62,736 nt of DNA from Verrucomicrobiota bacterium. GTDB lineage: Bacteria > Verrucomicrobiota > Verrucomicrobiia > Limisphaerales > CANJXF01. This document shows, one piece after another, positions 30,101 to 33,100 of this stretch; the first letter of the stretch is position 1, and each line of letters starts with the position of its first letter. The position numbers were made by a program. Location of the stretch: assembly GCA_038214755.1 (NCBI GenBank), contig JBBQRQ010000018.1, positions 1 through 62,736 of the forward strand, written 5' to 3'.

Positions 30101-33100
30101 GCTCTTTCGCCTTTTCTTCCCTCGACATTCGCAATTCGCCCCTTGAAATTTCCGCCCATGTCTTTGCCGTATAAAGTTGCGACGCTGCTTTATTGCTTCA
30201 ACGACCGCGAAGAAATTCTTTTGCTCGAACGAACGCAGGAACCCAATTGCGGGTGCTGGAGTCCATGCGGGGGAAAGTTGTTGATGGAGATCGGCGAGTC
30301 GCCCTACGCCTGCGCCTGCCGCGAAGCCGAGGAAGAAATCGGCTTGAAAATTCAAGCGTCCGATCTGCATCTCTTTGGCGTCATCAGCGAGCACGCCTAT
30401 CAAGGACAAACGCACTGGCTCATTTTTCTTTTTGAAATTAAAACGCGTCTCGCAAAATTACCGCCGGTCCATCGCGAAGGAAAATTCGGGTTCTTTCGCT
30501 CGGACGAATTGGCTTCTCTGAAAATGCCGGCCAGTGATCTTGAACAAATCTGGCCGCTGTTTTGGAAATATCGCCACGGATTTTTCGCCGCGCATTGCCA
30601 TTGCCGCCCCGATGTCGCGAACGAATGGGTGATTGAAGAAAGTCGAACTGCGAATGGGGAATGAAATTTTGCAGCCTATGTAAGTGTAGGCGGCGTGGTC
30701 ACTGAGCACAAAGATAAAAGTCCTGAAACCTGCCCTCGGCGTCAAAAAACAACCAAGTCATCGTCCACATTGTCGAGTGAAACAAAATGGTCGGGTAACG
30801 CACCTCGCCCTCTCGCACTCGAACGAATGAAGTGCTCGGCTCTCGTGACAGCCAATCCTTGAGTGCCGGGTGATTGGTGCTGCTGCGCGAATAGTCCGTG
30901 AACTCGAAGGCAAGTGCCTGTGTGACCTGCTGCATCGAGGCGTGCTGTCTCAACAGTGGTGCAAGCACCGCCTCTCGCTCCCGATACTCGCGCCCCGGGG
31001 GGCCATACTTGTGGTAGCAACCGACGGCAATCGCCAGTGCCGCGAACAGTGCGACGAGAACGCCGACTCCGACGAGTACCCATTTGGCGATGGTGGGCAT
31101 GGTGCATGACGCGCGAACGCCGCCTAACAAAGATTAGGCGGCGGGTTTTGCAGCCTATCAAGTTTCATGGCCGAACCGTAATTTGAATGAAAGTCACCGT
31201 CCAGCACTGCTTTGTTTGCGGAATGAAGCTCAACTATTTTCCGAGGGGCGCATTTCTTTTTTGAGCGACAGATTACCTGAGTTCGTCCCGAAGGGACATT
31301 TGATAATAGCCCGGCGTTTGAACGCCGGGATAATGTGGAGCGGGATTTCAGTTCCGAAGGAACGGCTGAAAATCCATCCAATAGTCACGCATTTCAGCCG
31401 TCCCTTCGGGACTCATGAATTGCGTCCCTTTTCCCGGCGTTGAAACGCCGGGCTATTCTCGGCAGTCCCTCCGGGACAATCCTGTTTCCTGGATACTTAA
31501 AACTTGGGACGCGTTCGCAAATCAATTTCCGGTAGGGCGCGTCACTCCGTGCGCGCCGCTTCTCGCATTCACGGCTGGAATTTAATTGTTTTTCCACGGC
31601 GCGCACGGAGTGGCGCGCCCTACCTTTTCCGCTACGCATGATTTGAGCAACGCGCGCCCCTTTCCGACAAAGGCTACGAACATTGCTTGTGCGCGGTTGC
31701 GGGCTTGTGTTTTTTTTCTCAAATAATAAAGTGAGGCTATGAAGAGCGATGTTCTGCCAGTTGAAATCCGGGGCATTCTCCCCGCCAACAGCGGCTGCGC
31801 GATTTTCGTCGGGAATGAACAAAAAGTTTTCGTGATTCAGGTCGAACACAACATGGGCGCGGTCATCGGAATGTTCATGCGCGACACGCCGAAAGAACGG
31901 CCACTGACCCACGATTTGATGGGACACGTTTTCAAAGGATTCAACATCACGGTCGAGCGTGTCATCATCACTGAACTGAAAAATTCCACTTACTTCGCTC
32001 GTCTCGTTCTGCAACAGGAAAATGAACTCGGCCAAAAAATTGTTGAAATTGACGCGCGTCCGAGCGATTGCCTCGCGTTGGCCGCCGCGCAAAAACGTCC
32101 CATCTTTGTCCGCAACGCTCTTTTTGAACAGGTCGAGGACATGAGTGAAGTCCTCGAACGCATCAATGAGAACGGTGGCGAAACCGAATAACATGCCGCC
32201 GTCCGTTTCTGTCCGATCCCTCCTGCTGGTTTGCGGCGACGATGAGTTCGCCGTCAAACAACGCGCCAAACAAATTTTCCAGGAATGGTGCGAAGAACTC
32301 GGAGGCATGGACCACGAAACCATCGACGCCAGCGTGAGCAACAGCGGTGAAGCGTTGAAGGCCCTGGCTAAGTTGCGCGAAGCCTTGCAGACCCTTCCAT
32401 TTTTTGGCGGAGCAAAAGTTGTCTGGCTGAAAAATTGTAATTTTCTCGGTGAAGAACGCACTGCCTCCGCGCAAGCCGTCACTGAAACGTTGGCCGAAAT
32501 TTCCCAAGAGCTAAAAAGTTTCGACTGGAAAAATGTCCGTCTCCTCATCAGTTCCGGCAAAGTGGACAAGCGAAAAGTTTTTTACAAAGCCATCGAGAAA
32601 ATTGGTTCGGTCGAAAGTTTCGCCGGCTGGTCGATCGATGACAAAGATTGGGTTGACCAGGCGGAAATATTTGCCCGCCGCTCGTTGCGCGAGTTGAAAA
32701 AGGAAATTTCCGACGACGCGCTTTCGCAATTGGTCGCGAACGTTGGGCCGCATATTCGTCTGCTCAATAACGAGATTGAAAAACTTAGTTTGTATGTCGG
32801 CGCGCGGGAGAAAATAAATTCCGATGACGTTTCGGAAATCGTCACGCGCAACAAACAGGCGCGCGCCTTTGCGCTGGGCGACGCGTTGGGCGAGCGCAAT
32901 CTTCCGCGTCTCCTTTGCTGCCTCGACGAGGAAATGTGGGAAATGCAATTCGACAAACAGAAGTCAGAAATCGGTTTGCTCTACGGTTTGATCTCGAAAA
33001 TCCGCACTTTGATTTTTTTGAGAGAGATGTTCGACGCAGGGTGGATAAAACCGGGCGGCGATTATCCCCGGTTCAAAGCGCAATTGGATAAGGTGCCCAA

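Follow-up and report, generated by a model that had tools for sequence, protein, structure and literature searches.

A hairpin-repeat doublet with Y1-type arms and ISKra4-type ends as the probable source of paired Acido-Lenti-1 matches in a Verrucomicrobiota genome

The two matches to the Rfam family Acido-Lenti-1 (RF01687) in the window, by which we mean the whole 62,736-nucleotide stretch of DNA analysed here, are very probably not small-RNA genes but the inverted arms of one gene-less doublet of Y1 type, REP/REPIN-like in character and wrapped in an outer layer of ISKra4 type. The survey's finding had placed the motif in a REPIN/MITE-like repeated DNA element rather than in a free-standing sRNA gene, which is supported by the pairing of the units, by terminal inverted repeats (TIRs) with target duplications, and by a link to Y1 transposases. 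The element is in fact both of the things named there: a REPIN-like doublet of Y1-transposase arms inside a DDE-type MITE. Because candidate mobilising enzymes have now been identified, this core reading can be extended beyond where the survey had left it.

The window copy is intergenic, with a NUDIX gene (30044-30664) on one side and a BFN-domain gene (31739-32191) on the other, as assigned by Pfam on the neighbouring ORFs. Its parts are as follows:

31246..31516 (no strand): whole element, 271 bp, a TIR-capped hairpin-repeat doublet of family A, subfamily A2 (14-copy alignment, end listing, TIR search)
31246..31268 (+): left TIR, GGGCGCATTTCTTTTTTGAGCGA (end listing, TIR search)
31284..31329 (-): left Acido-Lenti-1 unit, RF01687, 47.6 bits (cmscan)
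31285-31297: left outer hairpin h2, GTCCCGAAGGGAC, inside the left unit
31306-31309: left ATAG tag, inside the left unit
31310-31329: left hairpin h1, inside the left unit
31351..31363 (no strand): left central hairpin, GTTCCGAAGGAAC, the third hairpin of the left arm (14-copy alignment)
31364..31399 (no strand): doublet centre, GGCTGAAAAT...ATTTCAGCC, the site of the Y1 transposase gene in gene-bearing relatives
31400..31412 (no strand): right central hairpin, GTCCCTTCGGGAC (14-copy alignment)
31433..31478 (+): right Acido-Lenti-1 unit, RF01687, 40.9 bits (cmscan)
31433-31452: right hairpin h1, inside the right unit
31453-31456: right CTAT, inside the right unit
31465-31477: right outer hairpin h2, inside the right unit
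31494..31516 (-): right TIR, decayed, about 15 of 23 positions equal to the subfamily consensus TGCTCAAAAAGTGAGATGCGCCC (hand alignment)

Both units score above the 37-bit gathering threshold of RF01687 and span model positions 1-46 of 46 (cmscan), with E-values in the window search of 1e-7 to 8e-6. Folded as a single strand, the 271-nt element reaches -72.1 kcal/mol, as compared with -37.7 ± 3.7 kcal/mol for 200 shuffles (z = -9.3). These E-values, together with the fold energy, exclude a chance match. The window copy is an old one, a fossil: its right TIR has decayed and escaped the automatic TIR search at up to 3 edits, no 9-bp target duplication is recognisable around it, and the cognate Y1 gene of this genome is a pseudogene. 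The left TIR shows 2 mismatches to the tip GGGCGCATCTCA within its first 12 nt. A blastn comparison of window positions 30500-32300 with eight other genomes of the genus returned no empty site, homology being confined to the part from 31691 rightwards; since the left flank has no synteny in the genus, an empty site could not be shown. For window positions 30900-31900, a search of sequencing runs listed a single DNA run and no RNA run.

Within the source genome, RF01687 yields 50 matches at E<=1, 30 at E<1e-3 and 13 above the 37-bit cut-off. The survey had counted 14 at this cut, the next match scoring 36.7 bits; its 36 matches to a 24-mer with up to 4 mismatches were reproduced exactly. The head-to-head (-)/(+) pairing that it described is real, with the number of pairs rising from 13 to 14, and the end-to-end alignment, previously given for 12 of 13 pairs, takes in all 14 when the pairs are aligned with 80 nt on either side (MAFFT), covering both arms and the two central hairpins. 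A copy on contig C5 does have the central insert reported for it, of ~250-270 nt. Family A copies are on average 64% identical, and local hairpins remain intact even in the old ones. Conservation extends beyond the Acido-Lenti units to a terminal inverted repeat ~38 nt (38-39 nt) farther out on each side. The motif, taken before as the terminal module, is therefore subterminal in this genome, where a 23-bp TIR forms the ends, while in naked doublets elsewhere in the order it is indeed the outermost conserved module. One pair had been noted for its reverse geometry beside a Y1 gene. This pair, C3:54102(+)/54235(-), does adjoin the gene, a pseudogene of the cognate type. We read the pair as two adjacent decayed elements, of which the first contributes its right arm and the second its left.

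The TIR that caps doublets in the source genome (GGGCGCATCTCA..., 23 bp) matches the ends of a 1473-bp IS of the ISKra4 family. Found at locus L064 (positions 3000-4472), this IS carries the TIR at both ends, is flanked by the target duplication GTGGCGGAC and encodes a 473-aa transposase that scores 226.2 bits on NF033572 (cut-off 205). A 9-bp target duplication is typical of the ISKra4 family. In the source genome, the TIR is common to family A and two other MITE families, and two family-B members lie in the window:

14129..14279 (no strand): family-B MITE, 151 bp, with the same TIR, no Acido-Lenti unit and a perfect 9-bp duplication, TAAATGAGG
15730..15882 (no strand): another family-B MITE, 153 bp, in the opposite orientation to the first, with 6 of 9 positions equal in its 9-bp flanks

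Across 38 TIR-bounded elements, the 9-bp flanks agree at 7 or more positions in 22 cases and perfectly in 12, as against agreement at 7 or more in 0.14% of permuted pairs and in 0-3 of 38 elements in shifted registers. For family A, flanks of at least 7/9 were seen in four of the eight copies with two TIRs, compared with 0/56 in the null. Public contigs, most of those with the same TIR being labelled Verrucomicrobiota, show a perfect 9-bp duplication at 21 of 43 TIR pairs. Locus L070, from another genome, contains a capped doublet of 293 bp; its duplication, CGCGCCGGG, is perfect, and its RF01687 matches score 52.3 and 51.8 bits. Given ISKra4-like TIRs and 9-bp duplications around doublets, the element last spread in this genome as an ISKra4-type MITE, with the doublet as its cargo. 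Two of the 14 own-genome pairs (C24, C160) lack a TIR of this type.

An autonomous IS with the same TIR was not found in the 175-contig assembly, in scans that covered TIR pairs up to 4 kb apart, 3.5 kb inwards from each of 28 solo TIRs, and three long candidate pairs. The only full-length ISKra4-like IS of the genome (C50:32710-34086) agrees with this TIR over its first 10-11 nt only, and its transposase is 32% identical to that of L064. ISKra4-like genes in genomes G006, G034, G005 and G036 were discarded as the TIR source on account of their differing ends; those of G005:C34 are GCGCATCTTGACACTGCTAC, resembling the C50 IS.

RF01687 matches are present in 31 of the 41 genomes of an order-wide sample, and in five relatives 88 of 130 matches form 44 (-)/(+) pairs (hand count). 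The arm plan is the same throughout the order: h2, h1 with its TAG tag, and a central hairpin, three in all. In genomes G012 and G024, the doublets are naked; they stop at the outer hairpin, with CAG preceding the first h2 and CTG following the last. At these naked doublets, no 9-bp duplication was detected (28 loci; observed mean 5.25 vs. 5.38 in the null). On the strand opposite to Rfam's, the foot of the hairpin reads ATAG in the window units, GTAG in L070 and TTAG at C34 and C2, the TAG being conserved and the first base variable. As for 'half' matches in G007, these were considered as a single-arm family and dropped, most of them lying at contig ends, i.e., at assembly breaks.

The enzyme linked to the arms is represented by P0002, a 148-aa IS200-like Y1 protein with 67.9 bits on NF033573 (IS200/IS605; cut-off 55). 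On NF047646, the NCBIfam model of REP-associated transposases, it scores 22.1 bits against a cut-off of 80, which places it outside the RAYT/TnpA-REP class. Its motifs ADHVH, AWQEKYGAF and RYIQGQEEHH match the subclass 1.2 signature (DHVH, WQ, Y---Q--HH) by inspection against the published table, as distinct from the authors' HMM. Genomes contain one or two close copies of this type. Taking as close homologues those with at least 60% identity to P0002 over at least 100 of its 148 residues, and leaving out four shorter fragments, 12 of 13 lie within ~90 nt of an RF01687 match, one of the 12 in the unpublished genome G009; the remaining gene, on the 3.6-kb contig G024:C265, has no listed match nearby. 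Four Y1 genes (G037:C59, G008:C296, G037:C380, G020:C8) are bracketed by RF01687 matches in the order (-)gene(+), and complete three-hairpin arms around the gene were seen in L019 and L205, including a hairpin at the position of the left central hairpin of the window copy. Counting against the link, G024 and G012 have the entire doublet on one flank of the Y1 gene instead of one arm on each.

Co-occurrence points the same way: a Y1 match was found in 20 of 20 genomes with at least five RF01687 matches vs. 2 of 10 with none, counts in which related genomes are not independent and G009 is one of the 20. In the source genome itself, inverted units with the same layout flank the Y1 genes at C34 and C58, and the C2 Y1 gene is flanked by the units that make up the interior of MITE family C. 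An intact cognate Y1 gene is lacking in this genome; the cognate copy, C3:53634-54056, has lost the catalytic-Tyr region and abuts one arm.

The arm is built, from the outside inwards, of the outer h2, the TAG-tagged 8-bp h1 and the central hairpin. Since the same arms enclose the 148-aa Y1/HUH gene in relatives, the doublet would be an internally deleted, non-autonomous form, comparable to REP/REPIN with its RAYT. We infer that such doublets spread in single-stranded form, as DNA hairpins that the Y1 enzyme cuts and rejoins with no target duplication. If the element gives rise to RNA at all, this would be incidental or a side effect of REP-like kind and would not explain why the sequence exists.

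An alternative is that the element is purely an ISKra4-type MITE, its inner hairpins being passive filler and its nearness to Y1 genes reflecting a landing preference for hairpins, be it of IS200-like genes or of the MITE. We regard this as unlikely. In favour of a plain MITE, the TIRs and 9-bp duplications are direct evidence, unrelated interiors occur in MITEs that share this TIR (e.g., family B), and HMM scoring does not place the Y1 protein among the class-2 RAYTs. Passive filler, however, does not explain how the G012 and G024 doublets became multi-copy with neither TIR nor duplication, nor why a Y1 gene is symmetrically bracketed at four loci, which come from three genomes and represent at least two Y1 clades. 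Moreover, the different Y1 clades of the source genome each have different, architecturally equal units, and the co-occurrence of 20/20 vs. 2/10 fits a cognate pair.

We consider it very unlikely that the units are free-standing small-RNA genes (typed by Rfam as Gene; sRNA), each transcribed and paired by mere incident. The matches are full-length CM matches above the gathering score, and the motif is graded 'y' (probable RNA) in Table 1 of Weinberg 2010 (PMC2864571). Compensatory changes also keep the hairpins, with 46 distinct, nearly all Watson-Crick h1 stems in 154 units and a single copy can have differently compensated h1 stems in its left and right arms; such change is just as expected if a Y1 enzyme reads the hairpins as single-stranded DNA. 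On Rfam's strand, the non-Watson-Crick h1 pairs of the 154 units comprise 11 A.C and 2 G.T, the opposite of the tolerance expected for an RNA folded on the annotated strand, and the A.C pattern recurs in about half of 54 seed rows (hand count). Each pair has one unit per strand, so a single transcript cannot hold both in sense. Copies sit inside elements bounded by TIRs and target duplications, others flank a transposase gene, and no sigma-70-like promoter was seen in 30600-31800, itself a weak test.

The seed does set a limit to how far the inverted pairing can be generalised. In 54 of its rows, the units stand mostly in same-strand tandem arrays in Lentisphaera, which our model does not account for; the paired form is therefore not universal and cannot be taken as a trait of RF01687 as a whole.

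Less probable again is a purely Y1-mobilised REPIN in this genome too, whose 'TIR' would be a conserved extension of the palindrome and whose flank matches would be due to chance or target preference. Subfamily A2 is palindromic through linker and TIR, as such an extension would have it, and the two own pairs without TIR are compatible with it. Subfamily A1 is not, its TIR-to-arm linkers being unequal (9 and 18 nt); we set the 'palindrome extension' aside as speculation that fits only the symmetric A2. In addition, the 23-nt TIR recurs at both ends of an IS with a transposase gene, the flank duplications are tied to one register and greatly exceed the controls, and the perfect 9-bp duplication of L070 lies immediately outside the TIR. 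Least credible of all is a host-retained structural element that lost its mobility long ago (a REP-like mRNA stabiliser or terminator, or a nucleoid-protein or gyrase site): the intergenic position, the terminator-like score of the outer hairpin 31465-31477 with the T-rich sequence after it, the hairpins kept in old copies and the roles of this kind described for REP elements in PMC6006769 would agree with it, against which stand the mean identity of only 64% in family A, the decay of TIRs and the lack of a synteny-conserved copy at the window locus among five genus relatives. A host role of this sort is compatible with an origin as mobile DNA.

The doublet of Y1 arms, as we prefer to read the window matches, shares much with REP/BIME/REPIN sequences and their RAYTs (TnpA-REP, 'REPtrons') as characterised in Bertels & Rainey 2011 (PMC3116915) and Quentin 2018 (PMC6006769). 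The copies are intergenic and dispersed, the inverted doublets fold into a single long hairpin, and the repeats flank a small Y1/HUH gene, with one hairpin type per Y1 clade. The short hairpin resembles the REP form (GT[AG]G at the 5' foot) in part, its foot reading A/G-TAG here with a variable first base, and no target duplication was seen at naked copies in relatives. Unlike a RAYT, the protein is of IS200 type by NF033573 and scores below the cut-off of the RAYT model NF047646; the arms have three hairpins instead of one, and the doublets of the source genome additionally have DDE-type TIRs and, outside these, 9-bp duplications. A closer match for the protein is TnpA-Y1 subclass 1.2, described by Quentin, Siguier, Chandler and Fichant (2018, PMC6006769) with a median of 148 aa, the motifs DH[IV]H, WQ and Y---Q--HH, and low copy number; P0002 has this length, these motifs and a low copy number. 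The table of that paper lists the subclass as 'REP: no' and names Cyanobacteria and Bacteroidetes, whereas the genes here come with a cognate multi-copy hairpin repeat and apparently belong to a Verrucomicrobiota lineage.

TIRtrons, in which genes for tyrosine transposases (TIRYT) lie between long TIRs capable of giving rise to families of repeats (Di Nocera, De Gregorio, Rocco 2013, PMC3733652), are likewise similar as portrayed there: a Y1 gene between long, partly self-complementary inverted repeats that elsewhere also occur as dimers or clusters. According to the description in Quentin 2018 (PMC6006769), most TIRYTs are class 2.1 proteins, which have HTH tails and the motif GGGGWSAS; the proteins here show neither. 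A repeat family is reported in Koribacter versatilis (PMC3733652). The same species has a row in the RF01687 seed.

On the outside, the element resembles IS and MITEs of the ISKra4 family (NF033572) in its matching 23-bp TIR, its 9-bp duplications and its many short non-coding derivatives. It differs in that families A and C carry a doublet of another transposon class as cargo and in that an IS with the same TIR is absent from its own assembly. With regard to Rfam RF01687 (Weinberg 2010, PMC2864571), both window units fit the full model; the entry is typed there as an sRNA gene, as opposed to the DNA repeat arms seen here, and the Lentisphaera rows of its seed form direct arrays, not inverted pairs.

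The capping of doublets recurs: in families A1, A2 and C of this genome, in G005 and G007 with a TIR whose tip is 6 nt longer, and in L070 from another genome. It is conceivable, if on balance doubtful, that capped doublets are hybrids movable by two unrelated transposase classes, Y1/HUH acting on the inner arms and an ISKra4 DDE enzyme on the outer TIRs. Our model gives no account of why doublets of two different hairpin types are found within the same TIR. Should the hybrid reading be true, ISKra4 ends would repeatedly capture Y1 doublets, and a decaying REPIN population would gain a second route of spreading after the death of its own Y1 gene.

In literature searches on Acido-Lenti-1/RF01687, no title or abstract listed suggested a link to transposases. 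Reading the matches as DNA arms would remove a false RNA-gene annotation from many genomes and would give TnpA-Y1 subclass 1.2, listed without a REP partner in the table of PMC6006769, a candidate substrate. It would also extend REPIN-like biology to the Verrucomicrobiota, where the doublets nested in ISKra4-type TIRs would represent a naturally occurring example of a non-autonomous element carried by a second one.

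A cmscan search of the whole window returned exactly two Rfam matches, both to RF01687 (Acido-Lenti-1, typed as an sRNA). Each RF01687 unit comprises an outer hairpin, h2, and a TAG-tagged hairpin, h1; with a central hairpin these make up an arm, and a (-)/(+) inverted pair of arms is referred to here as a doublet.

Features in the window and, where a contig is named, elsewhere in the same genome
31246-31516, no strand: whole element, 271 bp
31284-31329, (-) strand: left RF01687 unit, cmscan 47.6 bits
31433-31478, (+) strand: right RF01687 unit, cmscan 40.9 bits
14129-14279 and 15730-15882: the two window copies of family B, ~151 bp, with the 23-nt terminal inverted repeat
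Family C, ~210-220 bp, with the same 23-nt terminal inverted repeat
C50:32710-34086: ISKra4-like insertion sequence, 1377 bp, perfect 9-bp duplication TGTCACGGC
C34:8940-9600, C58:4690-5310 and C2:6040-6680: intact Y1 transposase genes of other clades, each with inverted hairpin units carrying a CTAAT tail

Genome-wide, RF01687 gave 50 matches at E<=1 and 30 at E<1e-3. The survey's finding had counted 14 at the cut-off; 13 exceed 37 bits, and the fourteenth falls just below, at 36.7. Its 36 matches to a 24-mer (<=4 mismatches) were reproduced, and so was the inverted pairing, with 14 (-)/(+) pairs instead of 13, all 14 (previously 12) being alignable across both arms and the two central hairpins. 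The insert reported in the C5 copy (~270 nt) was recovered as well, at ~250-270 nt. Within this insert (C5:30100-30345, ~250 nt, in the doublet centre) is a separate, perfect inverted repeat of 16 nt, TTCAAGATGAGACTAA, with a tip similar to the ends (...CATCTTGAA) of the C50 insertion sequence. The insert may be a nested MITE.

The proposal that the RF01687 motif forms the end module of the element did not hold in this genome: in the 14-pair alignment, conservation runs beyond the units at both ends into an outer inverted repeat, GGGCGCATCTCA(N)TTT(C/T)TTG... A 14-mer from this terminal inverted repeat (TIR) has 151 matches in the genome at <=2 mismatches. The same 23-nt TIR bounds two further short families, B and C, both without Acido-Lenti units, and encloses two different hairpin types, those of family C and of the Acido-Lenti doublets (family A). 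With the element start set at GGGCGC for scoring, copies are flanked by 9-bp direct repeats. Flanks match at >=7/9 positions in 22 of 38 TIR-bounded elements and perfectly in 12, compared with only 0.14% of permuted left/right pairs at >=7/9 and 0-3 of 38 elements in shifted registers. Among the 14 family A pairs, the left TIR is recognizable in 11, the right in 9, both in 8 and neither in 2 (C24 and C160); the eight copies with both TIRs score 9, 8, 7, 7, 6, 6, 4 and 4 of 9, against a null whose maximum is 6 (>=7 in 0/56). In the window, the two family B copies lie inverted to each other around a 1.45-kb segment (14129-15882 overall) with one 399-aa ORF (14441-15640) that matched no Pfam family; the layout could be composite-transposon-like or a coincidence.

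A TIR search of public genome contigs yielded at least 120 stretches, mostly labelled Verrucomicrobiota MAGs among the matches listed. Locus L064 contains an element of 1473 bp that ends in the TIR on either side, with a 9-bp duplication (GTGGCGGAC) and a single 473-aa ORF. On NCBIfam NF033572, the model for ISKra4 family transposases (cut-off 205), this ORF scores 226.2 bits. The same MAG has two further copies, whose perfect duplications differ from this one. Perfect 9-bp flanks occur in 21 of 43 TIR pairs among the public matches listed, a count that includes a few repeats of the same element in overlapping loci. One of these 21 is at locus L070 (1715-2007), a pristine 293-bp capped doublet, i.e. 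one within ISKra4-type TIRs, with the perfect 9-bp duplication CGCGCCGGG, RF01687 matches of 52.3 and 51.8 bits, and h1 stems completely different from those in the window. Within the window's own genome, no insertion sequence carrying the 23-nt TIR was found. The C50 insertion sequence is apparently intact, with a 421-aa open frame reaching 191 bits on NF033572, just below the cut-off of 205; its TIR has only the first 10-11 nt in common with the 23-nt TIR, and the identity between its ORF and the L064 protein is 32%. ISKra4-family genes are present in 13 of 41 genomes sampled across the order. In two genomes of the same genus (G005 and G007, loci L158-L171), a TIR whose tip is longer by 6 nt, CAGGGCTGACGCATATCAATTTTGCGCAAT, caps the same doublet; flank repeats there are 9-10 bp, and the right-arm h1 is a compensated stem, CCCACGGTT/CCGTGGG.

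RF01687 matches occur in 31 of the 41 order-sample genomes, often in tens of copies, and by hand count 88 of 130 matches in five of these genomes form (-)/(+) pairs. In aligned doublets from genomes G024 and G012 (n=10 and 13), the outer hairpin is the exact limit of conservation (CAG|h2 ... h2|CTG), and no TIR surrounds them. Nor was a 9-bp duplication found at 28 loci of such naked doublets: the mean score was 5.25 versus 5.38 in the null, with >=7/9 at 1/28 loci versus 80/756.

Six strong PF01797 (Y1_Tnp) genes are found in the window's genome. Those on C34 and C58 are bordered on both sides by two-hairpin units that are inverted and share this architecture, and the C2 gene is flanked by the very units found inside MITE family C; this makes family C another capped doublet, belonging to a different Y1 type. 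For the gene at C3:53634-54056, the distance from its start to an Acido-Lenti arm is 13 nt. Since this gene matches only residues 1-113 of its 148-aa G024 orthologue, P0002, and lacks the Tyr motif, we read it as a pseudogene. P0002 homologues (>=60% identity over >=100/148 residues, 41 genomes, four shorter fragments left out) occupy 13 loci, of which 12, including one in the unpublished genome G009, lie within ~90 nt of an RF01687 match, the exception being G024:C265. The order (-) unit, gene, (+) unit is seen at four loci (G037:C59, G008:C296, G037:C380 and G020:C8). At loci L019 and L205, each flank of the gene shows h2, h1 and then the central hairpin; the arrangement is thus a doublet whose centre is occupied by the gene. 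G024 and G012 have a whole doublet on one flank of the gene; L175 (G024:C252, 605-1528) and L176 (G024:C112) are ~920-bp units, 89% identical, of Y1 gene plus full doublet, each bounded by a 60- to 87-nt direct repeat, which may stem from a long duplication, from insertion into another repeat or from a circular form. All 20 genomes with >=5 RF01687 matches have a Y1 match, versus 2 of 10 with none, genomes that kinship makes non-independent.

P0002 scores 67.9 bits on NF033573 (IS200/IS605; cut-off 55) and fails as a REP-associated tyrosine transposase (NF047646, 22.1 bits; cut-off 80). Its nearest solved structures are IS200/IS605-family TnpA, and its length and motifs (DHVH, WQ, YIQGQEEHH) fit TnpA-Y1 subclass 1.2, which a table in Quentin 2018 lists as 'REP: no' (PMC6006769).

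The window element has a NUDIX gene on one side and a BFN-domain/holA pair on the other, and folds into one long hairpin (z = -9.3). We read this copy as old and immobile because its right TIR is decayed, no target duplication is recognizable there, and mean pairwise identity is 64% in family A, compared with 91% and 88% in families B and C. A blastn search of 30500-32300 against eight other genomes of the genus found no empty site. Directly to the right (31521-31626) is a second, unrelated palindromic repeat with ~29-bp GC-rich arms (GGTAGGGCGCGTCACTCCGTGCGCGCC...) and a ~45-nt loop, further copies of which occur in C2, C3, C5 and C41 and in genus relatives. About 100 nt to the left, a GC-rich hairpin followed by TTTT (31115-31150; CGCCGCCTAA...TTAGGCGGCG GGTTTT) looks, from its sequence, like an intrinsic terminator; it is absent from the output of the promoter/terminator scan.

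Are the hairpins RNA or DNA? The 154 units contain 46 distinct h1 stems. As compensatory changes maintain h1, and may differ even between the two arms of a single copy, the conserved feature is the local hairpins and not merely arm-to-arm complementarity. Non-Watson-Crick pairs in these h1 stems are A.C in 11 cases versus G.T in 2 on Rfam's strand, and by hand count A.C likewise appears in about half of the 54 Rfam seed rows examined. Given this excess, the wobble-tolerant strand would be the opposite one, which reads (A/G)TAG plus hairpin, the layout of REP sequences. The strand of wobble, albeit in a small sample, thus favours DNA hairpins over RNA. A promoter scan, a weak test, found no sigma-70-like promoter in 30600-31800. 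The 54 seed rows are mostly same-strand tandem arrays in Lentisphaera (periods ~70, 110 and 195 nt), which do not fit the doublet picture.

Table 1 and the seed of Weinberg 2010 (PMC2864571) place the motif in Acidobacteria and Lentisphaerae and give it solely as a probable non-cis-regulatory RNA, and a 2026 preprint lists it as of unknown function; among titles and abstracts retrieved for 'Acido-Lenti-1' or 'RF01687', none points to transposons. In Di Nocera 2013, families of long TIR repeats are described on either side of Y1 genes, one of them in Koribacter (PMC3733652). By its description, that Koribacter family may overlap with Acido-Lenti-1.
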